DNA from: an uncultured Fibrobacteraceae bacterium
Lineage (GTDB): Bacteria; Krumholzibacteriota; Krumholzibacteriia; LZORAL124-64-63
Reading direction: 5' to 3'
Assembly: GCA_964436825.1 (NCBI GenBank)
Contig: CAYTEO010000010.1
Location: 36 to 64,035 of the forward strand
DNA length: 64,000 bases
Made by a program: the position numbers and the translations under genes. The notes beneath the pieces were generated by a model. That model was given only the letters and a program-made list of their open reading frames with translations, was not told the DNA's origin and ran no database searches. Of this stretch, positions 3,001-59,540 are shown piece after piece. The first letter of the stretch is position 1. The number at the start of each line of letters is the position of its first letter.

Positions 3001-3469
3001 CCTCGATTGGAGTCGCAGCGCCTGGCCCGAGGGGGAGGACTTCCAGATCTACCTGCCCCAGCAGAACCGGGTCGTCGTCATGTCGATGCGCGACCAGAAG
3101 AGCGTGACCCTGGATGTGGGAACCGAGCCGCTGCTGGTCCGGTTCAGGACGCCCGACATGACCACAGGCGCCGATGACGTGCCGCAGGCGAGGGCGGCCC
3201 TCTCCTGCCGTCCCAACCCCTTCAACCCCCGGACGGAGATCCGGATGGTCGTCCCGCGGGCCGGAGAGGCCGTCGTCCGCGTCTTCGACGTCCAGGGACG
3301 GGTCGTCCGGACGCTCAGGGCCGGGCGGGTGGCCGCCGGGGAGCATGCCGTCACCTGGCAGGGACGGACCGACAGCGGCGGCGAGGCCGCCAGCGGCGTC
3401 TATTTCGCACGTCTCTATCTCGATGGCCGACCGACAGGCGCCATCGGCAAGATGAGTCTCGTCCGCTGA
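98..3469 (+). CDS. Large secreted protein (about 1120 aa). It has an N-terminal signal peptide, a novel N-terminal beta-rich YFD-type domain and a C-terminal T9SS-type (Por_Secre_tail / FlgD-Ig-like) sorting domain.
   Basis: In-frame ATG at 98 is preceded by GAGGAGG at 84-90. The N-terminus MRVLRSFLVLVLLSVVAVGGLAQP is a signal peptide. The C-terminal about 80 aa (NPFNPRTEIRMVV...FDVQGRVVRTL...GEHAVTWQGRTDSGGEAASGVYFARL) matches the T9SS C-terminal-domain signature. The same tail is present on four other proteins in this window. Confidence 0.8.
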   Translation: MRVLRSFLVLVLLSVVAVGGLAQPVTTCPNTMGIYFDTEATVYCSDAAAGGPLTFYLMITNPTGDQIAAWECKVEWDQMGGGFFGNWTFANDGINVGDTSDPLNTLLAVGVGANPIQPQPATILATWSGFFGYGTGSVFKITPYPDTASFDPPAPGYAIDEVNLQACGVSSGDFDLPVAAIGLDCPVVIHSCTTPVDISALQSYDESGAPVYGQADVLVQGTVTTAPGTVVADGFYVQDGTGGILVTRETMPSLAVGDRVEAAGILADRDGEILIAGRTITPQGTTAPVLPDTVALVSLVDAYDRVATLTWTTGIVAAVDQDSLLLRAGSAELPVLFGPGTGIDPAGIEPGDVLEVTGILTVRNRRIVLLPRSRDDLFDATPDFGFNVLVEGTAVGGTTWEDFDNVAGVTPTASNGFDSGWDVIGTGTPIVFTGIDGYELDHDLRREYDPVYGSRQWPLRVTTPRAAADTTTVTLVFTPRLQGLTGFPVLLLDPAAGDTLDLLADGTVTYPVPPGAGDDVRDFVLVIGNTPGPFSGPLSVVLTATCGDLVDGGNRAETLEGATDGYDPALDVPEAPVPPSGYLSLAFPHPEWGSPLGDDFQVDRRAVYNPLQEQRVWTFAVRTDRAEPVTVTFEPSFVPADGFRLRLMDHTDGVVRDLYPDLSYTFTPTPGATRQFDLIVGNPPVPLLSPVERVLPAGWSLIGFPLTPAAGQNTLGQAVQDDAASVTFFYSYHGAAGYTLEAAETAFQPGDGFWCASVDSFAWTMEGEKEIDGVRVPLQQGWNIVGYPLWIPTDLAGVRVDLGPVRYTFQQAVDLGLVAPTVYDYDNAAGDYVTGTQLQTWHGYFVAAYSEDVSLWFDYTNIPTSKVLRPDPFEAMDADHWLVTVVPDGGTPIRFGVSSEARDGFDPVYDLPLPPPSPVAAAAPRLALVHPEWRLATGSEFVADVQSADSKEHHWDAVLTVSRPGPVTLDWSRSAWPEGEDFQIYLPQQNRVVVMSMRDQKSVTLDVGTEPLLVRFRTPDMTTGADDVPQARAALSCRPNPFNPRTEIRMVVPRAGEAVVRVFDVQGRVVRTLRAGRVAAGEHAVTWQGRTDSGGEAASGVYFARLYLDGRPTGAIGKMSLVR

Positions 3470-4267: not shown

Positions 4268-4511
4268 CCGGGGAAAAGAGATCGCCGGGAGCCGTCCTGG
4301 AGGTACTCCCTCGCCCAGTGAGTACCCCTGTCAGGAACGACTCCCGGCTTCCGGCATGGGACGATAGTAATATCAGTGTTGTTTGACCTGCACCACTGTC
4401 CCGGATGTGTTCGCCCGTCTCGAAAAGAAACAGCCCACGCCAGCTCGTGAAGGCTATCTCCCTCGCGCCATCCTTAACAATCCACGAGCCGGGAAAGTGC
4501 TGCACACTTTT

Positions 4512-4540
4512 TTGTTGTATGTGATAACCTGCCGGATATC
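4512..4540 (+). promoter_or_regulatory. Putative sigma70-type promoter (-35 TTGTTG 4512-4517, 17-nt spacer, -10 GATATC 4535-4540) inside a conspicuously AT-rich pocket upstream of the Cys-rich mini-ORF
   Basis: Segment 4370-4545 (gatagtaatatcagtgttgtttgacc ... cacttttttgttgtatgtgataacc) is far more AT-rich than the flanking 70% GC sequence. The hexamers are spaced 17 nt apart and sit about 25 nt upstream of the SD AAGGGAG and ATG 4563. Confidence 0.35.
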
Positions 4541-4562
4541 CGCTCAGAGAAGGGAGCACGGG

Positions 4563-4745
4563 ATGATCGAACTGGTTGACGAGACCATCGCGGAACAGGG
4601 GGATTTCACTCTGGCCGGCAATTGCAACTGCTCGTGCGGCTGCCTGGAGAGCCTGGCCGACGATGCGGTGGGACCCGTCGGGGCCGACAAGGCTTCCGAG
4701 TCGTCGGCCACCTACACCGGCAACGAATACGACATCAACGGCTGA
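4563..4745 (+). CDS. Candidate RiPP precursor peptide (60 aa): MIELVDETIAEQGDFTLAGNCNCSCGCLESLADDAVGPVGADKASESSATYTGNEYDING. It has a Cys cluster CNCSCGC and an acidic C-terminal region.
   Basis: ATG at 4563 is the internal Met 61 of track ORF 4383-4745. It is preceded by AAGGGAG 7 nt upstream. The peptide is small and Cys-rich. Its stop TGA 4743-4745 lies 5 nt before a candidate TTG start of the radical SAM/SPASM gene. The promoter-like AT-rich island lies immediately upstream, and the upstream part of the 120-aa track ORF contains that island. Confidence 0.6.
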   Translation: MIELVDETIAEQGDFTLAGNCNCSCGCLESLADDAVGPVGADKASESSATYTGNEYDING

Positions 4746-14904: not shown

Positions 14905-16944
14905 CTACTTGGCCAGCACGATCTTGTGGAACGTCACCATCCCGGCGCCGGTCGCCCGTACCAGGTAGGTGCCGCTGGCGGCGGGCCGGCCGCCGTCGTC
15001 GCGCCCGTCCCACGTGACCAGGTGCTCGCCGGCGGTCCGCTGACCGGAGACGAGGGTGCGCACGCGCCGCCCCTGCAGGTCGAGCACGTCGACGGTCACG
15101 TTCCCGTCCGCGGGCAGGGTGAAGGCGATGGTCGTGGTGGGGTTGAACGGGTTGGGCCAGTTGCGGACGTCCAGGCCGGGATGGCGCGAGGGCGTGCCGT
15201 CGCCGACGGCGGTGGCGTCGTCGGCCAGCAGCCACATGGTCGCGTTGAGGAAGAACTCCCGGTTGTTGCTGCCCGCCTCGGTCCAGTTGGCGGGGTGATC
15301 CTCGCTGCCGGTGCCGTCGGCCGTGCTGGAGGAGTCGCCGTAGCCGACGATCCGGCCCTGGCCGTAGCGGGACCAGCCGGCCACGTGCGGATCGCCCGCG
15401 TCCATGCTGATCAGGGCGCCCACGTCGCTCAGGTCCGGGTTGGCCGTCGGCCAGAGGGAGAGGCTGTCGCCCACGTGGTAGATGACCGCCGCCACGTCGC
15501 CGTAGCTGCCGTGGATGACCGGGTTGGAGGGGTCGGCGGCAACGTTGGTGAACGTCCCGGTGATGCCGTTGTTGCCCTCGTCCTTGACGTGGAAGTGCAG
15601 CCCGAACAGGGCGCCGCAGAACGTCTCGGTGTCCGAGCCGACCGGGTCGCTGATGTGGGGCACCGAGTAGCCGCCGAAGATGCTGGGCGAGTCCCAGCCG
15701 TTGCCGTTGCGGTCGCTGGCGTTGTGGTTGGCGACCACGAACAGCGAGCCGCCGGCGTAGACGAACTGCCGGACGGCCTCGATCTCGGCGGCCGTGAACG
15801 GGTTCTGGGGCTCGACGATCACCAGCAGGTCCACGCCGGTCAGCAGCGAGGAGCTCAGGGCCGTCGTGTTGCTGCGGACGGTGTGGCCGGCCAGGTAGAG
15901 CTCGTAGGCCCAGCTGGAGAGCTGGCCGCTCCAGTCGCTCTCGGCGGTCGGGTTCGCGGGCAGGGGGTCGGGGTAGTCGTCGTCGATCCGCCAGTTGCCG
16001 GTCGTGCCGGCATCCTGGTCGTGGGCGTGGTCGAACAGGATGACCTTGCCGGCCGTCGCGTCGCCCTGGACCCAGAAGGAGTAGACCGTCGTCGGGGCGT
16101 CGATGGGGTTGCGGACCTCGGCGTTGTCGTCGTCGCGGCAGGAGACGTAGTACTCGTAGAGGGTGTTGCCGGTCACGCCGCCCAGGGTCACCTGGTACTG
16201 GTCGCCGCCGATCGCGGTCATGATGACCGGCAGGTAGCTGCCGCCGCCGGCGCGGTACCAGCAGGTGGCCGAGAGGATCGTGCCGTCGGGATCGACGCAG
16301 GTGGCCGTGATCGTCACGTCGTCGCCGGCGACGGGGGCCGCGGGCGTGTGGCCGACGTTCGAGATGGCCGGCACCTGGTTGCCGCCGCCGGTGGTGCCGT
16401 CGTAGTACAGCTCGACGTACTCGTAGAGGTAGTCGTCGGGGTCGTTGGCCTCGCTGATGACCATCCCCGACAGGGTGCCGTCGGGCACCTCGACGCCGCT
16501 GCCGGGATCGGGGCTGGAGTCGATGCTCGACCAGGCCAGCTGTTCGGGATCGGCGCGGTGGTAGGCGAGCTTCGTCGTGGTGATGGCCGGGGTGGGGCCG
16601 TCCTCCACGCCGCCGGCGGAGTTGAGGAGCTGGAACGTCTCGTCCCCGTTGATCATCGGTGCCAGGTCGCCCGAGTTCAGGAAGACGACGTTGCTGCCGA
16701 GGGTGACCCCGTAGTAGCTCTCGAAGGCCGCCCTGTCCACGTTGCGTGCGATGATGACGTAGCCGCCCGGTTCGACGGTCGTCCCGGCCGGGATCACGTA
16801 GTCGTGGACGGCATTCTCCTGGTGCAGGGTCCAGCCGCCGATGTCCAGGCCCGTCTGGGCGAGGGCCGCGCCGGCGACGAGCAGGCAGGTCGGCAGCAGT
16901 ACCGCGAGAAGCGGCGAGATGACGCGGCGAGTCGAGACTCTCAT
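14905..16944 (-). CDS. Secreted lamin-tail-domain (LTD) protein with a central ThuA/DUF4350-like alpha/beta region and a C-terminal T9SS-type sorting domain
   Basis: ATG 16944 with AGAGGA SD. Signal peptide LLAVLLPTCLLVAGAALAQ. LTD-like N-terminus GWTLHQ...YVIPAGTTVEPGGYVII. C-terminal tail NPFNPTTTIAFTLP...LDLQGRRVRTL...GEHLVTWDGRDDGGRPAASGTYL. Confidence 0.75.
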   Translation of the reverse strand: MRVSTRRVISPLLAVLLPTCLLVAGAALAQTGLDIGGWTLHQENAVHDYVIPAGTTVEPGGYVIIARNVDRAAFESYYGVTLGSNVVFLNSGDLAPMINGDETFQLLNSAGGVEDGPTPAITTTKLAYHRADPEQLAWSSIDSSPDPGSGVEVPDGTLSGMVISEANDPDDYLYEYVELYYDGTTGGGNQVPAISNVGHTPAAPVAGDDVTITATCVDPDGTILSATCWYRAGGGSYLPVIMTAIGGDQYQVTLGGVTGNTLYEYYVSCRDDDNAEVRNPIDAPTTVYSFWVQGDATAGKVILFDHAHDQDAGTTGNWRIDDDYPDPLPANPTAESDWSGQLSSWAYELYLAGHTVRSNTTALSSSLLTGVDLLVIVEPQNPFTAAEIEAVRQFVYAGGSLFVVANHNASDRNGNGWDSPSIFGGYSVPHISDPVGSDTETFCGALFGLHFHVKDEGNNGITGTFTNVAADPSNPVIHGSYGDVAAVIYHVGDSLSLWPTANPDLSDVGALISMDAGDPHVAGWSRYGQGRIVGYGDSSSTADGTGSEDHPANWTEAGSNNREFFLNATMWLLADDATAVGDGTPSRHPGLDVRNWPNPFNPTTTIAFTLPADGNVTVDVLDLQGRRVRTLVSGQRTAGEHLVTWDGRDDGGRPAASGTYLVRATGAGMVTFHKIVLAK

Positions 16945-19186: not shown

Positions 19187-20419
19187 TCAGTCCTCCCGGG
19201 TCTCGGTGACCGTCTCCACCCGTCCCTCCGGCCCGATCCGCAGCTTCGTCGCCGACTGGACCGCCTCGTCGATCGCCGCCGCCAGGTCGATCCGCTCCGA
19301 CAGTTCCAGCAGCTGCTCGGGCCGGGCGTTGAGGACGGGCCGCGGCGAGCGGATGGAGCAGCAGTCCCGGTAGGGCCGGATGCTGGTCTCGAACAGGCCG
19401 ATCCGCCGGGACAGTTCGGTGATCTCGATCTTGTCCATCCCGACCAGGGGCCGCAGGATCGGCAGGGTGATGTCGGGGCTGATGGCCCGCAGGTTGGCCA
19501 GGGTCTGGCTGGCCACCTGGCCGACGCTGTCGCCGGCCACCAGCGCCAGGCAGCTCTCCCGGTGGGCGAAGCGGGCCGCCGTCTTGAACATGAAGCGGCG
19601 GAACAGGACCATGTCGAAGGAGTCGTCCACGCCCTCGACGGCGCGGCGCTCGTAGGGGAAGGCCGGCACCATGTGGAGCGTCAGGGGACGCGGCGAGTAG
19701 CCGGCCAGGATCCGCACCAGGTGCTCGATCTTCCCGCTGTCGGCCTCGGCGGGGCTGCGGCCCGGGAAGAAATGGACGAACTCGGGACGGCAGCCCCGCT
19801 TCATCATCATCCAGGCCGCCACCGGGGAGTCGATCCCGCCCGACAGCAGGACCATGACCCGTCCGCTGGAACCCACGGGCAGGCCGCCGCAGCCGGGGAG
19901 CTTGCGGTCGAACAGCAGGATGGCGTCGGCCATCACCAGGACGTGGAGGACCAGGTCCGGTTCGTGGAGGCGGACCGGCAGGCCGGTGGCCTGCTGGACG
20001 GCGGCGCCCAGGCGTGCGCTGATCTCCTGGGAGATCAGGGGAAAGCGCCGGTCCGAGCGGCGGGTGTCGATCTTGAAGTGGCGCGCCTGGTCCGCTTGGC
20101 GACGGGCCAATGCCACGACCGTCGCGGCGGCACGCTCCAGGTCCGCCTCGGGGTTGTCGGTGCGGGGCACGGGAGTGGCGATCGAGAGCCACTGGATCCC
20201 GCAGACCCGCTGCAACCGCGCGGCGACCTCCTCGGGATCGGCCCCTTCCGCCAGGCGGACCAGCAGGCGGCTCTCCACGTGCCGGATCGAGGCGATCGGC
20301 TGGCCGCGCAGGGCCTGGTCCATGTTGTTGCGCAGGCGCTGCAGGAAGACGTGCCGGTTCTTCCCCTTCAGGGCGATCTCGGCGTAGTGGACGCTGATGA
20401 CCGGTGTCGTCGTGCTCAC
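19187..20419 (-). CDS. thiI: tRNA 4-thiouridine synthase / sulfurtransferase ThiI
   Basis: GTG start 20419 with GGAGA upstream. THUMP region, then the PP-loop motif VMVLLSGGIDSPVAAWMMMKRG. About 410 aa. Confidence 0.8.
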   Translation of the reverse strand: MSTTTPVISVHYAEIALKGKNRHVFLQRLRNNMDQALRGQPIASIRHVESRLLVRLAEGADPEEVAARLQRVCGIQWLSIATPVPRTDNPEADLERAAATVVALARRQADQARHFKIDTRRSDRRFPLISQEISARLGAAVQQATGLPVRLHEPDLVLHVLVMADAILLFDRKLPGCGGLPVGSSGRVMVLLSGGIDSPVAAWMMMKRGCRPEFVHFFPGRSPAEADSGKIEHLVRILAGYSPRPLTLHMVPAFPYERRAVEGVDDSFDMVLFRRFMFKTAARFAHRESCLALVAGDSVGQVASQTLANLRAISPDITLPILRPLVGMDKIEITELSRRIGLFETSIRPYRDCCSIRSPRPVLNARPEQLLELSERIDLAAAIDEAVQSATKLRIGPEGRVETVTETRED

Positions 20420-26667: not shown

Positions 26668-26843
26668 GACGGTATCCCCCTTCGTGGCGCGAGGCGATGG
26701 AACGCGGTCCTCGTGGACAAGGATACCACGGATGATGCGTTCGGGGCCACTCTGGTGAGATATCGAGTGACAAGTGGCCCGGCGACGACTAGTTTAGCGG
26801 ATTGATCCGGATAGAGCCTCCACCCCGAAAGGAACCGAGAAAG

Positions 26844-28082
26844 ATGGCAGACCTGATCCGTCCCCATGGCAGCGACCAGCTGCTGCCCCTGCTGCTCGAG
26901 GGCGAGGCCCTCGCCGAGGAACTGGCCCGGGCCGAGAGCCTGCCCAAGGTGACCCTCTCCAGCCGCGAGACCGGCGACCTGATCATGCTTGGCATCGGCG
27001 GGTTCACCCCGCTGACCGGCTTCATGGGCAAGGCCGACTGGGAGGGTGTCTGCCGCGACATGACCCTCGCCAGCGGTGTCTTCTGGCCCGTGCCCATCAC
27101 CATGAGCGTCGATCAGGAGACGGCCGACTCCCTCGGCGAGGGGGACGAGATCACCCTGCTCAGCGGCGACACCGGCGAGATCATGGCCACCATGCGGGTC
27201 GAGGAGAAGTACGAGATCGACCGGGAGTTCGAGTGCAAGCACGTCTTCGGCACCACGGACACCGACCATCCCGGCGTGGCCATGGTCATGAACCAGAAGG
27301 CCGTCAACCTGGCCGGCCCGGTGAAGGTGCTGAGCGAGAGCTACTTCCCGCACGAGTTCGCCGGCCTGTACATGCGCCCGGCCGAGAGCCGCCGCATCTT
27401 CGCCGAGCGCGGCTGGAAGACCGTGGCCGCCCTGCAGCTGCGCAACCCCATGCACCGTAGCCACGAGTACCTGGCCAAGATCGCCATCGAGGTCAGCGAC
27501 GGGCTGTTCATCCACCAGCTGGTGGGCAAGCTGAAGCCGGGCGACATCCCCGCCGAGGTCCGCGTCCGCTGCATCGACACCCTGGTGGAGAACTACTTCA
27601 TCAAGGAGCGCGTCGTCACCGGCGGCTACCCCCTGGACATGCGCTACGCCGGCCCGCGCGAGGGGCTGCTGCACGGCGTGTTCCGCCAGAACTTCGGCTG
27701 CACGCACATGATCATCGGGCGCGACCACGCCGGGGTGGGCAACTACTACGGCCCGTTCGACGCCCAGAACATCTGGCACGAGATCCCCGCCGGCGCGCTG
27801 GAGATCAAGATGCTGCCCATCGACTGGACCTTCTGGTGCTACAAGTGCGGCGGCATGGCCAGCATGAAGACCTGTCCCCACGGCAAGGAGGACCGCCTGT
27901 TCCTCAGCGGCACCGCCCTGCGCAAGGCGCTGAGCGAGGGCGAGGACGTCCCCGCCGAGTTCTCCCGCCCCGAGGTGCTGGCCATCCTGCGCGAGTACTA
28001 CGCCGGCCTGAAGGACGAGGAGAAGGTCAAGGTGGAGCTGCACGACGCGGCCAAGGGGATCGACAAGCGGTCGGGGAAGTAG
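26844..28082 (+). CDS. sat: Sulfate adenylyltransferase (ATP sulfurylase, homo-oligomeric Sat type; no APS-kinase domain)
   Basis: ATG 26844 (MADLIRPHG). Motifs [13 protein letters not shown] and [17 protein letters not shown] (the HxxH-type nucleotide-binding motifs of ATP sulfurylase). About 413 aa. Confidence 0.85.
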
Positions 28083-31769: not shown

Positions 31770-32999
31770 TCAGCCGAAGAAGAGGTAGGCCACCAGGATC
31801 GCCGCCGCCAGCCCTGCCGCGTCGGCGGCCAGGCCGCAGGCGACGGCGTGGCGGGTCCGCCGGATCCCGACGCTGCCGAAGTAGACGGCCAGGACGTAGA
31901 AGGTCGTCTCGGTGCTCCCCTGCATGATGCTGGTCAGCCGGCCGACGAAGGAGTCGGCGCCGAAGGTCCGCATCGCCTCGACCATCATCCCGCGCGCGCC
32001 GCTGCCGCTGAGCGGCTTCATCAGGGCGGTCGGCACCGCGTCGATCCAGCGGCCGTCCACGCCGGCGACGGCCGCGACGGCCCGCGCCCCGTCCAGGGCC
32101 AGGTCCAGCGCCCCGCTGGCGCGCAGGACGGCGATCCCCGCCAGCATCCCCACCAGGTAGGGGATGATTCCCACGGCGACGCCGAATCCCTCCTTCGCGC
32201 CCTCGACGAAGGTCTCGTAGACCGGCACCCGCCGGCGCGCCGCCGCGCCGATGAAGGCGACGATGACGGTCATCAGCAGCAGGTTGGCCACCAGCGCGGA
32301 GCGGGCCTGGAGGGCCGCCTGGTCCATCCCGGCCAGCCACCACACCAGTCCGCCCACCAGCAGGGTCGCCCCGCCCAGCCAGGCGACGATGACCGGATCG
32401 GTCAGCCGGCGCCGCTGGACGGCTGCGGTCACGAGCAGGCCGACCATCGTGCTGCAGAAGGTGGCGATCAGGATCGGCAGGAAGACGTCGGTGGGGCTGG
32501 CCGCGCCGAGCTGGGCCCGGTAGGTGAAGATCGTCACCGGCAGCAGGGTCACCGAGGAGGTGTTGATGACCAGGAAGAGGATCTGGTCGTCGCTGGCGGT
32601 GGTCGGGGCTGGGTTCAGCTCCTGCAGCTCCCGCATCGCCTTCAGGCCCAGGGGGGTGGCGGCGTTGTCCAGCCCCAGGACGTTGGCGGCCATGTTCATG
32701 ACGATCGAGCCGGCTGCCGGGTGCCCGGCGGGAATCGAGGGAAACAGCCGGCGCAGCAGCGGTCCGAACAGGCGGGCCAGCAGGTCCACGGCCCCGCCCC
32801 GCTCGCCCAGGCGCATGAAGCCCAGCCAGAGGCACATGACCCCTGTCAGTCCCAGGGCGATCTCGAAGCCGGTCCTGGCGGCGTCGAACAGGGCGTCGAC
32901 CATCGCCTGGAAGACGTCGGGCCTGCCGAGAAGGGCCGCCTGGACCAGTCCCGCGGCCATGGCAACGAGGAAGAAGGCTGTCCAGATCCGGCCGAGCAT
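31770..32999 (-). CDS. Nucleoside-recognition (Gate) domain membrane protein, fused SpmA/SpmB-like
   Basis: Polytopic membrane protein with two Gate-domain halves. ATG 32999 shares its A with the stop of the upstream sulfotransferase (TGATG overlap). Confidence 0.65.
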   Translation of the reverse strand: MLGRIWTAFFLVAMAAGLVQAALLGRPDVFQAMVDALFDAARTGFEIALGLTGVMCLWLGFMRLGERGGAVDLLARLFGPLLRRLFPSIPAGHPAAGSIVMNMAANVLGLDNAATPLGLKAMRELQELNPAPTTASDDQILFLVINTSSVTLLPVTIFTYRAQLGAASPTDVFLPILIATFCSTMVGLLVTAAVQRRRLTDPVIVAWLGGATLLVGGLVWWLAGMDQAALQARSALVANLLLMTVIVAFIGAAARRRVPVYETFVEGAKEGFGVAVGIIPYLVGMLAGIAVLRASGALDLALDGARAVAAVAGVDGRWIDAVPTALMKPLSGSGARGMMVEAMRTFGADSFVGRLTSIMQGSTETTFYVLAVYFGSVGIRRTRHAVACGLAADAAGLAAAILVAYLFFG

Positions 33000-33787
33000 C
33001 AGGTTCCTGTTCCCGTTGAGCTGGGAACGGCTGGAGGGTTCCCTGCGATCTGCCTCTGTCTCACCGCGGCCATGCGAGCCATGACATCCTCGATGCGGCC
33101 GTAGCGGGACCTGAGCATGCGCTCGGCGATGGCCATGTAAGGGGAGAAACCGTTGCGATGCCGGAAGAGGTCGGGCCGGCGGCAGTCCTCCAGGTGGCGG
33201 CCCATGAACGCCTCCAGTCGGGCGAACTCGGCGTCACTGGTCATCAGTTCGTCGTAGGCCAGGACGAGATACTCGTACGGAGTGCTCTCCAGGATGGACA
33301 GAATCCTCACATTGTAATCATACCAACGGTCTAGGAACCTCCAGGCCCGCCCGATGTTGCCGGGTGCGTGATGGGGGCCATGATACCGGTAGTGGGGCCA
33401 AACGGCAGCCGGCCCTCTGTAGACGACGATCAGCCTGTGTTCCGGCAGCAGCTCCTCCCAGAGAGGGTAGGTCAGTGCCGTGCGGGGATCCTTGAATCCC
33501 CAGTCCTTGTATCTCCGCTCGCAAGTGCCGATCACCTCCTGCATCCTGCGCTGCAGGTCGGGTCCGGCGGTCAGCGGTTCCGGGGCCTTCAGATCGATGG
33601 TGGAGTAGCTGTCGGTGCCGAGGATCTCCAGGTTCAGGTGCAGGATCGACTGGCGCTCGTACTTGTTTCCCTCGTCGTAGCTGACCGATGGATCGATCTC
33701 GTCGTCCATGTTGATCCCGGAATGATGGAGGATCTGGGATGTGAGGGTGGTGCCGGATTTGTGCATGCCGAGCACGACGTAGATCAT
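32999..33787 (-). CDS. PAPS-dependent sulfotransferase (Sulfotransfer_1/3-like; PSB loop VVLGMHKSGTT)
   Basis: Internal ATG 33787 (MIYVVLGMHKSGTTL) with GGAGA SD. P-loop-like PAPS 5'-phosphosulfate-binding motif. The stop overlaps the downstream Gate-domain gene start. Confidence 0.7.
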   Translation of the reverse strand: MIYVVLGMHKSGTTLTSQILHHSGINMDDEIDPSVSYDEGNKYERQSILHLNLEILGTDSYSTIDLKAPEPLTAGPDLQRRMQEVIGTCERRYKDWGFKDPRTALTYPLWEELLPEHRLIVVYRGPAAVWPHYRYHGPHHAPGNIGRAWRFLDRWYDYNVRILSILESTPYEYLVLAYDELMTSDAEFARLEAFMGRHLEDCRRPDLFRHRNGFSPYMAIAERMLRSRYGRIEDVMARMAAVRQRQIAGNPPAVPSSTGTGT

Positions 33788-33999: not shown

Positions 34000-34812
34000 A
34001 TGGCCGTCACCCCCGGTCCACCGGGGCAGGCGGCCGCCTACTCCCTGACCGACGGCTTCCACGACCCCGCCGGGCGCAGCTCCGATCTCCCCCTGAACCC
34101 GCTGCTGGGCCGGCCGGTCGAGCTGCGCTTCACCGGCACGATCACCTGCGTCGCCTGCGGGCGGGAGACGAGGAAGACCCACGGGCCCGGCTACTGCTTC
34201 CCCTGTTCCCGGCGGCGGGCCGAGGCCGACATCTGCATCGTCAAGCCCGAGCTGTGCCACCACGGCGACCCTGACGCTCCCTGCCGCGACGAGGAGTTCG
34301 CCAGGCGGCACTGCTTCCAGCCCCACGTCCTGTACGTCTCGCTGACCTCGGCGCCCAAGGTGGGGATCACCCGCAAGGTCAACATTCCCACGCGCTGGCT
34401 GGACCAGGGGGCCGTGGCGGCGGTACCCCTGGCCGAGCTGCCGAGTCGCCGCGACGTGGGCCTGCTGGAGAAGGAACTCTCCGCCCGCCACGCCGACCGG
34501 ACCCACTGGATGACGATGCTGCGCGAGGAGGCGCCGGAACACGACCTGGAGGAGTTCGCCGCGCGGGTGGCGGCCGAGCTGGAGGAGCGCGGCGTGACGC
34601 TGTTGCCGCCGGAGCAGCGGGTCGTGCACCGTTTCCGGTATCCAGTCCTGCGCTTCCCGGAGAAGGTCAGGAGCTTCAACCTGGACCGCTCGCCCGTGGT
34701 GGCGGGGATCCTGGAGGGGATCAAGGGCCAGTACCTGCTGCTGGATGGCGGTGTCATCAACGTCCGCAAGTTCACCGGCTACCACGTCGAGCTGCGGGGG
34801 GAGGGGGAATGA
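34000..34812 (+). CDS. Conserved hypothetical protein with a CxxC...CxxC zinc-ribbon motif (DUF2797-like)
   Basis: Motif TCVACGRETRK...GYCFPCSRRRAEADIC. The start is uncertain: ATG 34000 was chosen, and ATG 33871 is an alternative. Neither has a good SD. The stop overlaps the SLC13 start (ATGA). Confidence 0.5.
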   Translation: MAVTPGPPGQAAAYSLTDGFHDPAGRSSDLPLNPLLGRPVELRFTGTITCVACGRETRKTHGPGYCFPCSRRRAEADICIVKPELCHHGDPDAPCRDEEFARRHCFQPHVLYVSLTSAPKVGITRKVNIPTRWLDQGAVAAVPLAELPSRRDVGLLEKELSARHADRTHWMTMLREEAPEHDLEEFAARVAAELEERGVTLLPPEQRVVHRFRYPVLRFPEKVRSFNLDRSPVVAGILEGIKGQYLLLDGGVINVRKFTGYHVELRGEGE

Positions 34813-36344
34813 GCGGGGACAAGGGCCGTTTCCAGGCGATCGGCCTGTGGCTGGGACCGCTGGTCGCGGTGCTGCTGATCCTGTCGGCGGACCTGGATCC
34901 GGACCGGCCGGAGGTGACGGCCATGGCGGCGGTCGCCCTCTGGATGGCGCTGTGGTGGCTGAGCGAGGCGGTGCCGCTGGCGGCGACGGCGCTGCTGCCG
35001 GTCGTCCTCTATCCCCTGCTGGGGATCATGAGCGGCAGGGAGGTGGCACCGGTCTACTGCAACTGGATCATCTTCCTGTTCCTGGGCGGGTTCATGGTGG
35101 CCCTGGCCATGGAGCGCTGGGACCTGCACCGGCGGATCGCCCTGCGGATCATCTCCGCCATCGGCGGCGGGCCGCGGCGGATCGTCCTGGGCTTCATGCT
35201 GGCCAGCGCCTTCCTCTCCATGTGGGTCAGCAACACGGCGACGACGATGATGATGGCGCCGGTGGCCATGGCCGTCGTGGCGGGCCTGCGGGGGCGGGCC
35301 GACCGGCAGCGCGTGGACGCCTTCGCCACCGCGCTGCTGCTGGCGACGGCCTACGCCGCCTCGGTGGGCGGCCTCTCGACGCTGATCGGCACCCCGCCCA
35401 ACCCGCTGCTGGTCAGCAACGTGGGTGTCATGTTCCCCGGGGCGCCCGAGATCTCGTTCGCGGGCTGGATGATCCTCGGCCTGCCGGTGGCCGTCGTCGC
35501 CCTGGCGGTCGTCTGGGTCGAGCTGTCGCTGCTGTACCGGCTGCACGAGGCCGGCGACCTGATCGACCACGCCGCCCTGCGCCGCCAGCGGAAGCTGCTG
35601 GGGCCCATGTCCTTCGCCGAGAAGGTCGTCCTGGCCGACTTCTCCCTGATGGCCCTGCTCTGGCTGTCGCGCAAGGGATTGACCGTCGGCGGGTTCTCGG
35701 TGCCGGGCTGGTCGCACCTGCTGTCCCACGGCCGGTTCGTCGACGACGGCACCGTCGCCATGACCCTGGCCCTCGTCCTGTTCGTCGTCCCCGCCCGCAA
35801 CGGGAAGGGAGAGAGGATCCTGGACTGGCCCACCGCCCGCCGGCTGCCGTGGGGGATCGTCCTGCTGTTCGGCGGCGGGTTCGCCCTGGCCAGGGGGTTC
35901 GTCGCCACGGGTCTGTCCGGGTGGCTGGGCGACAGGATGGCCGGCCTGTCGTTCCTGCCCACGCCGCTGCTGGTCCTGGTCGTCTGCCTCGTCATGACGT
36001 TCGTGACCGAGCTGACGAGCAACACGGCGACGACCCAGATGGCGCTGCCGGTCCTGGCCAGCCTGGCCGTGGCCATCGGGGTCAACCCGCTGCTGCTGAT
36101 GGTGCCGGCCACCCTGTCGGCCTCCTGCGCCTTCATGCTGCCGGTGGCCACCCCGCCCAACGCCATCGTCTTCGGCACCGGCATGGTCTCGGTCCGCGAC
36201 ATGGCGCGCACCGGTCTCCTGCTGAACCTGGTCGGCGCGGTGGTCATCACCGCGGCCATCTACCTGCTGGGCGGGGCGGCGTTCGGGATGGACCTCCACG
36301 GGGTCCCGGCCTGGGCGGCCCACCTGGCGGGGGGAGGGGGGTAG
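34809..36344 (+). CDS. SLC13/DASS-family Na+-coupled anion symporter (sulfate or di/tricarboxylate transporter)
   Basis: About 511 aa polytopic protein with two SNTAT(T/M) hairpin motifs (WVSNTATTMMMAPV and LTSNTATTQMALPV) diagnostic of DASS transporters. Confidence 0.8.
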   Translation: MSGDKGRFQAIGLWLGPLVAVLLILSADLDPDRPEVTAMAAVALWMALWWLSEAVPLAATALLPVVLYPLLGIMSGREVAPVYCNWIIFLFLGGFMVALAMERWDLHRRIALRIISAIGGGPRRIVLGFMLASAFLSMWVSNTATTMMMAPVAMAVVAGLRGRADRQRVDAFATALLLATAYAASVGGLSTLIGTPPNPLLVSNVGVMFPGAPEISFAGWMILGLPVAVVALAVVWVELSLLYRLHEAGDLIDHAALRRQRKLLGPMSFAEKVVLADFSLMALLWLSRKGLTVGGFSVPGWSHLLSHGRFVDDGTVAMTLALVLFVVPARNGKGERILDWPTARRLPWGIVLLFGGGFALARGFVATGLSGWLGDRMAGLSFLPTPLLVLVVCLVMTFVTELTSNTATTQMALPVLASLAVAIGVNPLLLMVPATLSASCAFMLPVATPPNAIVFGTGMVSVRDMARTGLLLNLVGAVVITAAIYLLGGAAFGMDLHGVPAWAAHLAGGGG

Positions 36345-41546: not shown

Positions 41547-41758
41547 GGTCTGCCTCCGGATCGTCGTGTACGGGCGATGAACGTGTTGTCGGAGCGCCGC
41601 GCCGATCATAAGCAGCAGCCGGGAGCGTGGCCAGCTGGAACTCCCCGGCCCGCGCGACCACCCGGCGCGGGTCGCGGTCCGCGCAACGTCGGCTTGCCGG
41701 TTCCCGGGGCAACCATCACTTTCCACTGGAACCAGGTGTCAGCGAAAGGATACGGACG

Positions 41759-43930
41759 ATGTCCCGCCTGTCACGGAGTTGGTTGCCGGTATTGGTGCTC
41801 CTGTTGCTGCCTTGTTCCGTCGTCCGCGCCGCTCCCGTCGTGCAGGCCGGTCGCGCGAACGGGGACATCGCCATCGACGGGCGGCTGGACGAGCCGTCCT
41901 GGCGCGAGGCCGGGCGGATCGCGGACCTCGTCCAGCAGGATCCCCGTCCGGGCGAGCCGACCCCCTACCGGACCGAGGTGCTGGTCCTGGTCGATCCCGG
42001 CGGGCTGACCTTCGGCTTCGTCTGCCACGATCCCCACCCGGAGCGGATCGCCGTCCACACGATGCAGCGCGACGGCGTGCTGCGGGGGGACGACGCCGTC
42101 ACCATCGTCCTGGATCCCTTCGGGGACCGCCGGCGCGGCTACTTCTTCAAGATCAACGCCGCGGCGGCCCGCGTCGACGGGCTGATCACCGGTCCCGAGC
42201 AGCTCTCCCTGGACTGGGACGGTATCTGGGACGCCGCCACCAGACGCACTGCCGACGGCTGGTCGGCCGAGATCCGCATCCCCGCCCAGTCCCTCCGCTT
42301 CCCGCCCGGGGAGGACCGGTGGGGCCTGAACGTCGAGCGCTCCGTCGCCCGCGACCGGCTCTACCTGCGCTGGGGGGACATCTCCCTGGACGCGGGGCTG
42401 ATCGACCTGCGCCGGGCCGGCGAGCTGACCGGCGTCGGCATCCTGCGCCAGGGACTGGGGATCTCCGTCAGTCCCTACGGCATCGTCCGCGCCGACAAGG
42501 GGGACGGGGAGAGTTCCTACACCACGACCGGCGACGTCGGCGGCGATCTCACCTGGAACCTGACCCCGGAGCTGAGCGCCGTCGTGACGGCCAACACCGA
42601 CTTCGCCGAGACCGAGGTCGACACGCGGCAGATCAACCTGACCCGCTTCCCCCTCTTCTTCCCCGAGAAGCGATCGTTCTTCCTGGAGGGGTCGGAGCAG
42701 TTCTCCTTCGGTGTCGGGCTGGGACGCGACTTCCTGCCCTTCTTCTCCCGTCGCGTCGGCCTGTACGAGGGGGAGCAGGTCCCCCTCGACGTGGGGATGA
42801 AGCTGCTGGGGCGCAGCGGCCGGTGGGGGATCGGCCTGCTGGGCGCGCACACGGGGGCGACCTCCCTGACCGGCGAGGCTGACCTGTTCGCCGGGCGGGT
42901 GACCTGCGATCTCGACCGTCACCTGACGGTGGGGGCCATCGTCACCGACGGCGATCCCGACGGCGTCTCCGACAACACCCTGGTCGGGGCGGACGCCGTG
43001 TGGCAGACCTCGACCCTGGGCGGGGACAAGAACTTCGCCGTGGGGGGGTGGGCCGCGTGGAGCCGGGGCGACGTGCCGCCGGACCGCCGCTACGGCTGGG
43101 GAGTGAAGGTGGACTACCCCAACGACCTGTGGGACGCGTTCCTGATCTACCGCGAGTTCGGCGACGGCCTGGACCCGGCCCTCGGTTTCCTGCCCCGGCC
43201 GGGGACCCGGTGGCTGATGGCCGGGGCGGCCTACCAGCCGCGGCCGGACGGGGGCATGTTCGACTGGGTCCGGCAGTTCTACTTCGAGTTCTACCCGCGG
43301 ATCGTCTGGGACCTGGACGGCGGGACGCAGTCGTGGCGGATCTTCACCGCCCCGTTCAACGCGCAGACCGAGTCGGGGGAGCACCTGGAGGCCAACTACG
43401 TGCCGCAGTACGAGCGGCTGGACGAGCCGTTCGAGGTGGCCGACGGGGTGGTCATCCCGGCCGGCGGCTACCGGTTCACCCGCTTCCGCGTGGAGGCGCA
43501 GACGTCGCGGCACCGGCCGGTGCGTGTCGGCTCGACGGTCTGGTTCGGCGACTTCTACACCGGGACGCTGACCCAGTGGGAGAGCTTCGTCACCTACGCC
43601 TCCGGCGGCGGGCACCTGCAGCTGAGCCTCAGCGCGGAGAACGACTTCGGCGACCTGCCGCAGGGCACGTTCACCCAGCGGCTCTACCAGCTCCGTGTGG
43701 TCTACGCCTTCACGCCCGACCTGATCCTCTCCAGCTACGCGCAGTACGACTCGGAATCGAGGGATGTGGGGCTGAACACACGCCTGCGCTGGACCCTGCA
43801 ACCGGGCAACGACCTCTACCTGGTCTGGAGCCGCACGCTCCACCGGCCGCTAGACCCGGACGGCTGGGACCTGCTGCGCACCCGGGACGACCACCTTGCG
43901 CTGAAGCTGCGCTGGACGTTCCGGCGCTGA
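41759..43930 (+). CDS. Secreted DUF5916/CBM9-like domain protein (probable outer-membrane beta-barrel with an N-terminal carbohydrate-binding-like domain)
   Basis: ATG 41759 with AAAGGA upstream. Signal MSRLSRSWLPVLVLLLLPCSVVRA. N-terminus DGRLDEPSW...GYFFKIN (CBM9-like). The C-terminal half is rich in alternating beta-strand pattern and ends with an aromatic residue (RWTFRR). Confidence 0.6.
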   Translation: MSRLSRSWLPVLVLLLLPCSVVRAAPVVQAGRANGDIAIDGRLDEPSWREAGRIADLVQQDPRPGEPTPYRTEVLVLVDPGGLTFGFVCHDPHPERIAVHTMQRDGVLRGDDAVTIVLDPFGDRRRGYFFKINAAAARVDGLITGPEQLSLDWDGIWDAATRRTADGWSAEIRIPAQSLRFPPGEDRWGLNVERSVARDRLYLRWGDISLDAGLIDLRRAGELTGVGILRQGLGISVSPYGIVRADKGDGESSYTTTGDVGGDLTWNLTPELSAVVTANTDFAETEVDTRQINLTRFPLFFPEKRSFFLEGSEQFSFGVGLGRDFLPFFSRRVGLYEGEQVPLDVGMKLLGRSGRWGIGLLGAHTGATSLTGEADLFAGRVTCDLDRHLTVGAIVTDGDPDGVSDNTLVGADAVWQTSTLGGDKNFAVGGWAAWSRGDVPPDRRYGWGVKVDYPNDLWDAFLIYREFGDGLDPALGFLPRPGTRWLMAGAAYQPRPDGGMFDWVRQFYFEFYPRIVWDLDGGTQSWRIFTAPFNAQTESGEHLEANYVPQYERLDEPFEVADGVVIPAGGYRFTRFRVEAQTSRHRPVRVGSTVWFGDFYTGTLTQWESFVTYASGGGHLQLSLSAENDFGDLPQGTFTQRLYQLRVVYAFTPDLILSSYAQYDSESRDVGLNTRLRWTLQPGNDLYLVWSRTLHRPLDPDGWDLLRTRDDHLALKLRWTFRR

Positions 43931-44002
43931 GGTCTGCCCGGCGGACAGACGAGATGGACGCGGGACGCGACCCGGGGGGAGCTTCCCTGTCTCGCGGCGC
44001 CG

Positions 44003-44095
44003 TCAGAACAGCGCCGCGATGAGCATGACGATGGCCCCCACCGTGACGATCGCCGTCAGCAGATAGAAACAGAAAGCGAGACGGCAGCGGATCAT
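44003..44095 (-). CDS. 30-aa hydrophobic mini-protein (MIRCRLAFCFYLLTAIVTVGAIVMLIAALF). Candidate small membrane peptide or type I toxin-like.
   Basis: It is not in the track. A perfect AGGAGG lies 6 nt upstream of ATG. It has a single predicted TM helix. It lies in an AT-rich pocket (44110-44215) with a TAGAAT -10-like hexamer (plus-strand attcta 44132-44137). Confidence 0.45.
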   Translation of the reverse strand: MIRCRLAFCFYLLTAIVTVGAIVMLIAALF

Positions 44096-44219
44096 GGAGA
44101 CCTCCTCTTTGGAATGGGGTCACCTGTGTTCCTATGGATACATTCTAGCATCATTGCATAGTAAAACGGTAGGATTAATCCATGTCCCACCCATGATGTC
44201 CGGTCGTCCGGGCGGTCTG

Positions 44220-51551: not shown

Positions 51552-52469
51552 TCAGGGCGTGTACCCCAGTCGTTTCATGTCCCGGGCGAACCAGAGACGG
51601 AACCAGCGGTCGACCCAGCCGGGGATCTGGCTCCGCCAGCGCTCCCTGGCCGTCCTGTCGAATCCCCGCTGGCCCTGGTGCTGTCCGTAGCTGATGACCT
51701 TCTGTTCCAGCATGACGGGCTGAAACTCGATCGCCAGCTCGCGGCAGAGTTCAGCGATCCGACGCTCGGGTTCCTCGACAAGTTCCTCGAAGACCACCAG
51801 ATGGTAGTCGTCAGCATACAACTTCTTGTAACGGTTGTAGAGTCGAATGCCGTTCTTCCAGGAGATGGTCACCTGGGCGAGCAGGAACAGCTTCAACAGG
51901 GGTTCCACCCGCGAGAGCAGGCGGTAGGTGATCGTGACGGGGTACTTCTTCCGCCTGCGGATCTCGGAGGCGAAGACGGCGCGCGGGTCGCGCATCATGT
52001 GGATGAAGGCTGCCTCCGGGTACCACCGCTTGAGGACCGGCACGTAGTAGAGGTGGGCCGGGGTCTTCTCCCCCCCGATCTCGGCCTGTTGGCTCTCTGC
52101 GAAGAGCTCCATCAGGGCGTCGAACAGACCCTCTTCCGAGCGGTCCGAGGCGAGGAAGCGCTGGAGCATGGTCTGCGGGGGGATGTTCTCCCTGAACCAC
52201 TCCCACTGCCAACTGATATGCTTGAAGCGCGAGTAGCGGCGAAACTCGTCGGAGTAGATGTAGTCGACGAGGCGGCGGACGTTGTCGTCCACCGTCAGGT
52301 CGCCGAAGCGGCGGAGACGGTAGCGCACGCCGATCCAGCGGACGAGATGGCCCACGTAGAAGGTCTCGTCCAGCAAGGCGATCTGGCTCGAGCGGTTGAG
52401 GATCCTCCGCATCAGGGAGGTGCCGCTGCGGCTGACGCCGACGATGAACAGGTGTCTCTTCAGTGGCAT
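51552..52469 (-). CDS. PAPS-dependent sulfotransferase (Sulfotransfer_3-like; PSB loop FIVGVSRSGTSL)
   Basis: Internal ATG 52469 (MPLKRHLFIVGVSRSGTSLMRR). 3'-PB-like region IHMMRDPRAVFAS. It is the third sulfotransferase paralog in the window. Confidence 0.7.
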   Translation of the reverse strand: MPLKRHLFIVGVSRSGTSLMRRILNRSSQIALLDETFYVGHLVRWIGVRYRLRRFGDLTVDDNVRRLVDYIYSDEFRRYSRFKHISWQWEWFRENIPPQTMLQRFLASDRSEEGLFDALMELFAESQQAEIGGEKTPAHLYYVPVLKRWYPEAAFIHMMRDPRAVFASEIRRRKKYPVTITYRLLSRVEPLLKLFLLAQVTISWKNGIRLYNRYKKLYADDYHLVVFEELVEEPERRIAELCRELAIEFQPVMLEQKVISYGQHQGQRGFDRTARERWRSQIPGWVDRWFRLWFARDMKRLGYTP

Positions 52470-57407: not shown

Positions 57408-59540
57408 ATGAAGACCACGCGCCTGCTCCTGCTCGTCCTGCTCGCGGCGACGGCTGTCTTCGCCTCGCCCCGCCGTGCTGCTCCCGACCGCGCCGCGGCC
57501 CCGGCCGTCGTCCTGCCCGGCGACGTCATCGTCCTGTCGGCCCTGGACCGGGCCGACGGCAGCGGCAGCGACCGGCCCGTCACCCGCGCCCGCGCCCGCC
57601 AGATGCTCTTCGAGCTGCAGCGCTCGGGCCAGCTCCCGCCCGGCGCGCCGGGCTGGGAAGAGCTGGCCGCCCGTGCCCGACCGCTGGTCCGCCGCGGCGC
57701 GGTGCCGGTCCTGCTGCTGGATGCCGCTTGCCGCTGGCGCGTCGAGGGGGAGCGGGCGTGGCGTGACGGCCACGTCTTCGCCGCCGCCCCCCTGCGTGAA
57801 AGGCTCTACCACGGCCTGCGCACCGAGTTCGTCTTCGACCTCGCCTGGCGGGTCGGCGACCGCGAGCCGGCGGGGCGGCTGGCCATCGATCCCGGCGACG
57901 GTCGCGGCTGGCGGCCCGTGCCGGCCGACGGGCGGCTCGTCGTCTCCTACCCGACCCGCGGCCGCCGGCTGGTGCGCGTCCGCCTGGAGATCCCGGACGG
58001 GAGGACCCTGGAGTCGTCCTTCCCCGTCGAGGTCGTCCGCCTGGAGACACCGGCGCCCCACGACACCCTCCACGTCATCGCCTCGGTGCCCTACCAGGGC
58101 GAGTACGGCACCGGCGACGCCTACGTCTACCTCTCGGACCGCCACGCGAGCCTGGCCAATCCCGTGGTCGTGCCCGAGGGGTTCGACCTGGACAACAGCA
58201 TGGACTGGGACGAGCTGTACGACCTGCTGGACCAGCAGGACCTGGTGGAGACCCTCCGCGCCCGCGGCTACGACGCGGTGGTGCTGAACTTCTCCGACGC
58301 CACCGATTACATACAGCGCAACGCCATGGTGCTGTCCGAGTTGCTGGACGAGGTCCGCGCCCTGCTGCCGTCCGACCGCACCGTGGCGGTGATCGGGCCC
58401 AGCATGGGTGGCCTGGTCTCCCGCTACGCCCTCTGCTGGCTTGAGGACCAGGGAGTGGACCACGGCGTGCGCACCTGGATCTCCTTCGACTCGCCCCAGC
58501 GCGGCGCCAACGTCCCGCTGGGGATCCAGCACTGGCTGGAGTTCTTCCGCGACGAGTCGGCCGACGCCGCGGCCCTGCTGGCGGCCCTGGACAGCCCGGC
58601 CGCCCGCCAGATGCTCTTGTACCACCACGGCAGTACCAGCGGCCTGACGGCCGCCCCGGATCCCCTGCTGGCCGAGCTGCGGAACGACCTGGCCGCGCTG
58701 GGCGACTGGCCGCAGCAGCCGCGCCGCGTGGCCATCGTCAACGGCAGCGGCACGGGCGCCGACCAGGGTTTCGTCCCCGGCGACCAGCTCGTCGACTACA
58801 CCTACCGCAGCCTGGTGGTGGACATCGACGGCAACGTCTGGGCCCTGCCCGACGGCAACACGCTGCGGATCTTCCAGGGGATGATCGACCGCATCTGGCC
58901 GCTGCCGGACGACTACCGGGACGTGACGGTCGCCGGCACGTTGCCGTGGGACGGCGCCCCGGGCGGCTGGCGGGCGTCCATGGCCCAGATGGATACCACG
59001 AGCGTTCCCTACGGGGACGTGGTGGCCCTGCACCCGAACCACTGCTTCATCCCCACGGTCAGCGCCCTGGCCCTGGACACGGACGATCCCTGGTACGACG
59101 TGGCCGGCGACCCGGACCTGGTGGCCCACACGCCGTTCGACGTGGTCTATTTCCCCACCGGCGAGAACCAGGAACACGTCTCCATCACCGCCGAGAGCGC
59201 GGCGTGGTTCCTGGACGAGATCGAGGAGGGTGTGACGGGTGCCGGACAGCCCGTGCCGGCGGTGGCGGTGCACCTGCAGGTCTCTCCCAATCCGTTCAAT
59301 CCCCGGACGGAGATCGTCTGGACCTTGCCCTCCGCCGCGTCCTGCCGGCTGGCGGTGTTCGACCTGGCGGGCCGTCGGGTACGGACGTTGCTCGCCGGGA
59401 CCGACCTCGGTCCGGGGCGCCACGCCATGTCCTGGCACGGCGACGATGACGGCGGAAGGGCGCTGCCGGCTGGGATCTACCTGCTGCGCCTGCAGGTGGG
59501 GCCGGACCGGGAAACCGCTGCCGTGACCCTGGTGCGCTAG
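57408..59540 (+). CDS. Secreted alpha/beta-hydrolase (lipase/esterase-like, nucleophile GPSMGG) with a C-terminal T9SS-type sorting domain
   Basis: Signal MKTTRLLLLVLLAATAVFA. Nucleophile elbow VAVIGPSMGGLVSRYAL (GxSxG). C-terminal tail NPFNPRTEIVWTLP...FDLAGRRVRTLL...GIYLLRLQ. Confidence 0.75.
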   Translation: MKTTRLLLLVLLAATAVFASPRRAAPDRAAAPAVVLPGDVIVLSALDRADGSGSDRPVTRARARQMLFELQRSGQLPPGAPGWEELAARARPLVRRGAVPVLLLDAACRWRVEGERAWRDGHVFAAAPLRERLYHGLRTEFVFDLAWRVGDREPAGRLAIDPGDGRGWRPVPADGRLVVSYPTRGRRLVRVRLEIPDGRTLESSFPVEVVRLETPAPHDTLHVIASVPYQGEYGTGDAYVYLSDRHASLANPVVVPEGFDLDNSMDWDELYDLLDQQDLVETLRARGYDAVVLNFSDATDYIQRNAMVLSELLDEVRALLPSDRTVAVIGPSMGGLVSRYALCWLEDQGVDHGVRTWISFDSPQRGANVPLGIQHWLEFFRDESADAAALLAALDSPAARQMLLYHHGSTSGLTAAPDPLLAELRNDLAALGDWPQQPRRVAIVNGSGTGADQGFVPGDQLVDYTYRSLVVDIDGNVWALPDGNTLRIFQGMIDRIWPLPDDYRDVTVAGTLPWDGAPGGWRASMAQMDTTSVPYGDVVALHPNHCFIPTVSALALDTDDPWYDVAGDPDLVAHTPFDVVYFPTGENQEHVSITAESAAWFLDEIEEGVTGAGQPVPAVAVHLQVSPNPFNPRTEIVWTLPSAASCRLAVFDLAGRRVRTLLAGTDLGPGRHAMSWHGDDDGGRALPAGIYLLRLQVGPDRETAAVTLVR

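Follow-up and report, generated by a model that had tools for sequence, protein, structure and literature searches.

The 64,000-nucleotide (nt) stretch of contig CAYTEO010000010.1 analysed here (the window), from an uncultured Fibrobacteraceae bacterium, carries a 30-codon open reading frame (ORF) on its minus strand, between the gene of a YiaD-family glycine-zipper/OmpA lipoprotein (44879-44220, minus strand) and the convergent gene of a DUF5916 protein (41759-43930). An earlier note on this DNA had described a hydrophobic mini-ORF with a single predicted transmembrane (TM) helix, a textbook Shine-Dalgarno sequence (SD) and its own AT-rich promoter pocket containing TAGAAT, the island lying directly downstream of ompA, and had proposed as its product a type I toxin or, alternatively, a small membrane protein. 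The placement was correct, the stop codon of the OmpA-domain (YiaD-family) gene being at 44220. Homologues of the ORF were found in two related lineages, represented here by loci L165 and L172, and comparison of the three sequences makes it very probable that the ORF is a real protein-coding micro-gene. The reading that we favour for its function, to which we give about an even chance, is that of a monocistronic micro-gene whose product acts on a membrane partner as an inner-membrane microprotein with its N terminus inside (N-in). The features of the locus are collected in Table 1.

Table 1. Features of the microprotein gene and its immediate surroundings (positions in the window).
Feature	Position	Strand	Remarks
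AT-rich promoter and leader region	44096..44215	minus	Between the YiaD-family stop codon and the microprotein start codon
Upstream block GGATTAATCCTACCGTTTTACTATGCAATGATGCTA	44146..44181	minus	Conserved with L172; contains palindrome GGATTAATCC
Predicted extended -10 element, aTGcTAGAAT	44142..44151	minus	Read from sequence and conserved in relatives
Shine-Dalgarno sequence GAGGAGG	44101..44107	minus	5 nt ahead of the ATG; read from sequence
Microprotein coding sequence	44003..44095	minus	ATG at 44095, 30 codons, TGA at 44005-44003; product MIRCRLAFCFYLLTAIVTVGAIVMLIAALF
GC-rich hairpin	43992..44019	minus	12-bp stem, 4-nt loop, 92% complementary; spans the last codons and the stop codon
Second hairpin GTCTGCCCGGCGGACAGAC	43932..43950		Directly after the DUF5916 stop codon; seen in fold

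The core of the SD, AGGAGG, occupies 44106-44101 at a spacing of 5 nt from the ATG, which bears out the textbook SD of the earlier note. Across the 64-kb window this is the sole ATG-initiated ORF of 20-60 amino acids (aa) whose mean hydropathy reaches 1.5 or more and which has GGAGG upstream. First-order Markov simulation of the window, repeated 200 times, yielded on average 0.005 such hydrophobic, SD-preceded ORFs per 64 kb, and any at all appeared in 1 of the 200; since the expectation is so low, the ORF is more than a product of chance. I, V, L, F, C, M or A fill 21 of the 25 positions in residues 6-30 of the peptide, basic residues occur at positions 3 and 5 only, and no residue after R5 is charged. 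AlphaFold2, supplied with the three-sequence alignment, predicted one helix over residues 3-29 with a mean pLDDT (predicted local distance difference test score) of 91.6, in agreement with the single TM helix claimed previously. We also considered a lipoprotein signal peptide with L-A-F-C at residues 6-9 and rejected it, there being no hydrophobic core before the Cys and F being atypical of the lipobox consensus at position -1. At 30 aa with a predicted TM helix, the product lies within the size and TM range searched by Fozo et al. 2010 (<70 aa; PMC2887945), and its length and predicted helix also fit the class of small membrane proteins (<50 aa, single helix; PMC12648545).

The two 30-codon homologues, MPRCRLAYCFFLLVSLITLGIIVSLVIITP and MMRCRLSYCLFLLVTLITLGIIVSLVIITP, come from the two related lineages (L165 and L172), one related lineage having been assembled from a hydrothermal vent metagenome. 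MPRCRLAYCFFLLVSLITLGIIVSLVIITP was located through protein-database matches to the YiaD-family lipoprotein, where two proteins are 87% identical to that of the window. A profile search, in which the two peptides then known were padded with X residues and compared with 5.8 billion proteins, returned exactly three 30-aa clusters (P0121, P0122 and P0123) plus one V14M variant; MMRCRLSYCLFLLVTLITLGIIVSLVIITP is the third cluster, and it too lies between DUF5916 and S9 peptidase genes. The exact window peptide is encoded on five metagenome contigs with DNA 99.8-100% identical to the window, which carry no comparative information because they represent the same strain. All three homologues have the same length of 30 codons, with start and stop at homologous positions, and share the motif M-x-RCRL-x-x-C within a total of 13 invariant columns (M1, R3, C4, R5, L6, C9, L12, L13, T18, G20, I22, V23 and L25). 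The SD is likewise retained, as GGGAGG in the relatives, at the same distance to the start as GAGGAGG in the window. The earlier note had named a lack of conservation of the peptide, even in close relatives, as a ground for giving up its reading; what we found instead were same-length homologues in two related lineages, differing by substitutions of the coding type.

Those substitutions are mainly synonymous or exchange one hydrophobic residue for another. Between L165 and L172 the non-synonymous divergence (dN) is 0.09 and the synonymous divergence (dS) 0.46, with 4/2/8 differences at first, second and third codon positions; the corresponding values are 0.61, 0.92 and 13/11/15 for the window against L165, and 0.62, 1.83 and 15/9/19 for the window against L172. 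The resulting dN/dS ratios, estimated over 29 codons and with dS near saturation against the window, are ∼0.2 between L165 and L172 and 0.3-0.7 for the relatives against the window. GC content by codon position across the three lineages is 0.43-0.53/0.37-0.40/0.87-0.90 (0.53/0.40/0.87 in the window ORF). As the third-position value (GC3) matches the ∼0.9 of the long ORFs in the window, the ORF bears the codon signature of its host although it sits beside an island of 40% GC. The fixed length in three lineages, the conserved SD, the GC by codon position and the dN/dS below 1 together give indirect support for translation of the ORF.

Every retrieved contig that has the microgene has it in the same DUF5916 neighbourhood, and scanning the window together with 171 loci for the motif gave one copy per locus, with no tandem or paralogous copies. 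None of 80 DUF5916 loci from species-representative genomes (≤73% identity) has an adjacent YiaD-family gene or the peptide. Nor was the peptide found at 80 YiaD-family loci from JGI metagenomes, which are not orthologous to the locus in the window (∼57-77% identity, GC 0.39-0.73). Of intermediate DUF5916 relatives, at 71-77% identity, the three looked up, P0128 (77%), P0129 (75%) and P0133 (73%), examined at loci L178-L181 (the P0133 contig being L180-L181), stand in differing gene contexts at GC 0.57-0.65 and have no mini-ORF. By these comparisons the taxonomic range is a narrow group of uncultured high-GC bacteria. The closest matches to the neighbouring genes come from metagenome-assembled genomes whose labels disagree, being Krumholzibacteriia, Acidobacteriota or Thermoanaerobaculia. 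One unrelated metagenome contig, L093, has a very hydrophobic 48-aa ORF, MLETILIILVVMWALGLFAFHAGGVIHVLLVIALIVLIVRLLQGRKIL, with AGGAGG, ∼350 nt downstream of a YiaD-family homologue; it is not similar to the microprotein.

The window peptide matched no Pfam or NCBIfam family at E up to 1, the relatives' peptides gave chance-level Pfam matches only (E 0.64 and 1.5), and none of the three matched PADLOC at E up to 10. Neither KdpF nor CydX, as modelled in Pfam and NCBIfam, matched the microprotein, there was no significant match to the toxin families modelled in Pfam, NCBIfam or PADLOC (Hok/Gef, Ldr, Fst, TisB, Ibs, ShoB and others), and PHROGs and plasmid tblastn searches gave no match. Rfam, at gathering as well as permissive thresholds, yielded no credible RNA family at the locus, and no tRNAs were present. 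A phmmer search with the single peptide against 1.84 billion representatives recovered only itself, a weak negative since a 50%-identical 30-mer cannot reach significance.

Upstream of the ORF, at about 44110-44200, GC content falls to 0.40-0.43 against a window mean of 0.71, making this the lowest in GC among only four islands below 50% GC in the 64 kb. TAGAAT lies here at 44147-44142 (minus strand) with TG ahead of it at 44150-44149. The aligned -10 elements read TAGAAT in the window, TGgTACGCT in L172 and TGTACAAT in L165 (TACAAT); T1, A2 and T6 are shared by all, and TG stands just upstream of the TA...T in all three lineages. A generic σ70 scan for paired -35 and -10 elements reported no promoter on either strand of the locus, as a -35 match is absent; it is on the extended -10 and its conservation in the relatives that the promoter call depends. 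The AT-rich promoter pocket proposed earlier is supported. From the sequence, transcription would start near 44135, giving a leader of ∼40 nt. When folded against shuffled controls, the leaders of the three lineages were not more structured (z = -0.09, +0.63 and +2.25).

Aligned with the region upstream of the L172 gene, the 36-nt block GGATTAATCCTACCGTTTTACTATGCAATGATGCTA agrees at 26 of 36 positions (72%), a score reached by 2 of 200 shuffles. Because it matches despite the different genomic position of the gene in L172, the promoter region appears to have stayed with the ORF. A perfect 10-bp palindrome within the block, GGATTAATCC (44172-44181), is ∼25 nt upstream of the predicted -10 and could be an operator; L172 keeps part of it (GGATTTTTCC) and L165 does not.

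At the other end of the gene, the GC-rich hairpin over the last codons and stop is present in both the minimum-energy and the centroid fold and is terminator-like without a U tract, while the hairpins 3' of the stop codon in the relatives are weaker and different from it. The second hairpin, GTCTGCCCGGCGGACAGAC, may end DUF5916 transcription and so limit convergent read-through into the microgene. Inside the relatives' ORFs (L165:3990-4025 and L172:865-900) there is an 8-bp inverted repeat, TGATCACC...GGTGATCA, and a hairpin of another sequence lies at about the same point within the window ORF; the repeat may merely reflect repeated ATC and GTC codons.

The microgene does not occupy the same place in the three lineages. 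The relatives' contigs retain the order transporter, YiaD-family gene and convergent DUF5916 gene, with orientations as in the window, but have the microgene between the DUF5916 5' end and the S9 peptidase gene, whereas in the window it lies between the YiaD-family gene and the DUF5916 3' end. The comparison was between window 43931-44219 and two stretches of L165, 1568-1612 and 3791-4195. The spacer between the YiaD-family and DUF5916 genes is 289 bp in the window (43931-44219) and 45 bp in the relatives (L165:1568-1612). By this comparison a segment of ∼240 bp (roughly 44195 to 43960, minus strand) has changed place with its promoter or, equivalently, the DUF5916 gene has crossed it. The segment comprises the AT-rich region with the extended -10, the ∼40-nt leader, the strong SD, the 30-codon ORF and the GC-rich hairpin over the stop codon. 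A remnant of it was sought in the window spacer between the DUF5916 and S9 peptidase genes, where local alignment was no better than with shuffled sequence. We also considered a recognisable transposon-like element and rejected it: the short repeats around the segment are compatible with chance, neither target-site duplications nor terminal inverted repeats were found, and the junctions do not align crisply. Since more distant relatives lack the microgene, no outgroup polarises the ancestral arrangement. Seen in this way, the module appears to behave as a self-contained unit that kept its promoter through a local change of gene order.

Further genes of the neighbourhood bear on whether the microgene is transcribed on its own. 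The window neighbours are a membrane transporter (PF03547), the YiaD-family lipoprotein (NCBIfam NF053611, E 4.7e-70; Pfam OmpA, E 5e-24), the DUF5916 protein and an S9 peptidase; no kdp, cyd or efflux genes are near the microgene. The S9 peptidase gene has a promoter-like element of its own, TTGCGT or TTGAGT followed after 16 nt by TATGAT (L165:4095-4130, L172:∼960-995 and window ∼41575-41610, minus strand), and all three lineages keep the TATGAT -10, which in the window lies in the spacer that lacks the microgene. This suggests that the clade uses ordinary σ70-type promoters. In L165 and L172 the microgene is followed by this separate σ70-type peptidase promoter, and in the window it faces the DUF5916 3' end. 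Because the peptidase promoter is separate and its -10 persists where there is no microgene, we take the microgene to be monocistronic and independent of its neighbours.

In the reading that we favour, residues 3-29 of the microprotein would form the one helix by which it inserts into the cytoplasmic membrane. The positive-inside rule, by which a predicted N-in orientation was assigned, would place the two arginines and two conserved cysteines at the cytoplasmic face, with the uncharged C terminus ending at the outer face. With its helix and the juxtamembrane R-C-R-L-x-x-C the peptide would then bind a larger membrane protein, stabilising or modulating that partner; such an accessory, binding role, like that of known small membrane proteins of bacteria, Prli42 among them, is proposed because the microprotein has no catalytic capacity. 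Conservation is concentrated in R-C-R-L-x-x-C and at scattered helix positions (T18, G20, I22, V23 and L25), the remaining helix positions accepting hydrophobic-for-hydrophobic swaps. This focus suggests a specific contact rather than bulk hydrophobicity, and it is on this account that an accessory or regulatory microprotein is preferred. AcrZ, MgtS, KdpF and CydX are small membrane proteins that bind a larger membrane protein (PMC12648545). The small membrane protein that the earlier note had offered as its alternative fits all the data.

Several points weigh against the proposal of an accessory microprotein. No partner protein is identifiable from gene context, and the YiaD-family lipoprotein, the DUF5916 protein and the S9 peptidase resemble exported envelope proteins, not components of inner-membrane complexes. 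No feature of the peptide separates a benign accessory subunit from a membrane-perturbing one. The comparison covers three lineages, two of them close to each other, and the window peptide is 50% and 43% identical to those of the relatives, as against 87% for the YiaD-family protein and 79-83% for DUF5916; because its identity is so far below that of the flanking proteins, constraint on the C-terminal half appears weak beyond hydrophobicity. The small number of codons and near-saturated dS behind the dN/dS ratios, and the empty σ70 scan, count on the same side.

A type I toxin would form oligomers in the inner membrane and dissipate the proton motive force, its synthesis being restrained by an antisense or divergently transcribed small RNA. 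Such a toxin is matched by the size of the product, its extreme hydrophobicity and its single helix, as well as by the strong SD of the microgene, the 19-aa IbsC being likewise almost all helix (PMC12648545), and so it is by the gene's narrow phylogenetic range, its own promoter and a position relative to the flanking genes that differs between close relatives. A polar or aromatic C-terminal cluster and tandem copies (the latter frequent in such toxins though not obligatory), both search criteria in Fozo et al. 2010 (PMC2887945), are nevertheless missing: the C termini read IAALF in the window and VIITP in the relatives, and no tandem or second copy occurs in the window or the databases. For two of the three lineages the SD was predicted to pair modestly with a CCCC run upstream of it. 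The SD-AUG region has an unpaired probability of 0.34 in the window against 0.45 in controls (23 of 200 as low) and 0.20 against 0.41 in L165 (7 of 200), but in L172 115 of 200 controls were as low, so that any sequestration is weak, inconsistent and absent from L172. The scanned opposite strand has no promoter-like or terminator-like site and no conserved TA...T; in the relatives neither the mRNA nor the antisense fold is unusually stable (z 0.07 to 1.37; antisense 0.35 and 0.65); the leader is short (∼40 nt) and unstructured; and read-through from the convergent DUF5916 gene could give an antisense RNA in the window arrangement only, not in the relatives. With no match to the toxin models of Pfam, NCBIfam or PADLOC either, the type I label given earlier found no specific support, and we regard a toxin as unlikely, though it is the likeliest of the alternatives. 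A bolder form, in which the ∼240-bp segment belongs to a new family of relocatable, self-contained membrane-toxin modules with an unrecognisable RNA antidote and its switch of DUF5916 side reflects selfish mobility, not a passive rearrangement, in an uncultured high-GC lineage known from hydrothermal metagenomes, strikes us as distinctly improbable. Somewhat more plausible than that form, but doubtful all the same, is a self-acting, stress-induced modulator of the YohP type, whose helix would lower membrane potential and metabolism with neither an RNA antitoxin nor a fixed partner. YohP, whose expression is reported to lower the proton motive force (PMC12719787), matches in architecture, being 27 aa and essentially all helix; no partner gene is linked to the microgene, and the palindrome in its promoter region could serve as an operator for conditional expression. 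That palindrome is not conserved in L165, however, the peptide has no sequence similarity to YohP or any described family, and the conserved R-C-R-L-x-x-C face points to a specific contact, not a generic lipid effect.

Two further explanations were weighed. If the ORF were incidental, what is conserved in the DNA would be a small RNA, a promoter or the relic of a regulatory element. GC-rich DNA often contains open frames of 30 codons, neither a coding nor a non-coding reading is backed by a family in Rfam, Pfam or NCBIfam, and three lineages are all that the comparison covers. We nevertheless hold this to be very unlikely, given that start, stop, length and SD are kept at homologous positions, that third positions vary most (4/2/8 between L165 and L172) and GC3 matches the host, that the folds revealed no conserved RNA structure, and that the simulations put a hydrophobic ORF with an SD ∼200-fold below the one observed. 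The other explanation, a leader peptide or upstream ORF controlling the S9 peptidase gene, draws on the arrangement in L165, L173 and L172, where the mini-ORF precedes that gene on the same strand (160 bp upstream of it in the relatives), and on the hairpins after the mini-ORF stop codon. Yet the window ORF is intact and conserved with a convergent gene, DUF5916, next to it; the relatives have a separate conserved promoter between ORF and peptidase gene, whose TATGAT persists in the window without the ORF; and an attenuator peptide would not be expected to have a helix and a conserved motif of amino acids. We find control of the peptidase gene scarcely credible.

Prli42 of Listeria, at 31 aa, is an all-helix small membrane protein. 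Like YohP of E. coli (27 aa; PMC12719787) and other all-helix small membrane proteins (PMC12648545), the microprotein has ∼30 aa that are nearly all one TM helix, and it resembles YohP-type proteins further in having basic residues at the N terminus only, a stand-alone gene, a strong ribosome-binding site and no catalytic domain. It differs from YohP and Prli42 in sequence, the two-cysteine juxtamembrane motif R-C-R-L-x-x-C having no counterpart there. With the type I toxins IbsC (19 aa), ShoB, TisB and ZorO (∼26-29 aa) it shares the form of a small hydrophobic single-helix peptide (PMC2887945, PMC12648545), an intergenic gene with its own promoter and a narrow taxonomic range, but no antisense RNA gene, tandem copies, C-terminal cluster or family match was found, and its leader is short and unstructured. 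Among accessory microsubunits, KdpF (29 aa), CydX (37 aa), AcrZ (49 aa) and MgtS (31 aa) are single-helix microproteins of similar size; purifying selection on one face or end of the helix is a further likeness, and their mode of action is the one proposed here. KdpF and CydX, whose models do not match, have their genes within or beside the partner's operon, unlike the microgene, which has no kdp, cyd or efflux genes nearby.

Elsewhere in the window, a second AT-rich island (4451-4581, GC 0.47) with the T-rich stretch cacacttttttgttgtatgtgataacc lies just upstream of an ATG at 4564 that is preceded by GAAGGGAG, the encoded N terminus being Cys-rich (NCNCSCGCLE). The regions 33261-33341 and 51771-51871 also fall below 0.50 GC and, by position, apparently lie within coding regions or at their edge. 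With a cut-off of E 1e-10, NCBIfam has no match for four long ORFs (8-3469, plus; 14905-16944, minus; 57408-59540, plus; 31770-32999, minus), which are 409-1153 aa in length and high in GC3. Genes for a sulfate adenylyltransferase (26802-28082, plus), a DASS-family anion symporter (34809-36344, plus) and ThiI (19187-20419, minus) are present too, a hint of sulfur assimilation in this organism.

Judged by comparison of sequences, the microprotein represents a new orphan family of three sequence clusters within one narrow clade, in kind a member of the known bacterial single-helix microproteins; what is unusual about it is limited to the juxtamembrane motif of two cysteines and two arginines and to the change of place of the module together with its promoter. 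The finding overturns nothing, and its value is that of a well-supported annotation candidate: small membrane proteins are routinely missed in annotation, almost nothing is known of them outside model organisms, and the case for this one rests on comparative evidence, not on the appearance of the sequence alone. It shows that a change in local gene order can carry a micro-gene along together with its promoter. Should the two cysteines serve to dimerise the protein, to bind metal or to contact a partner, the family would offer a compact model for how microproteins recognise their targets.

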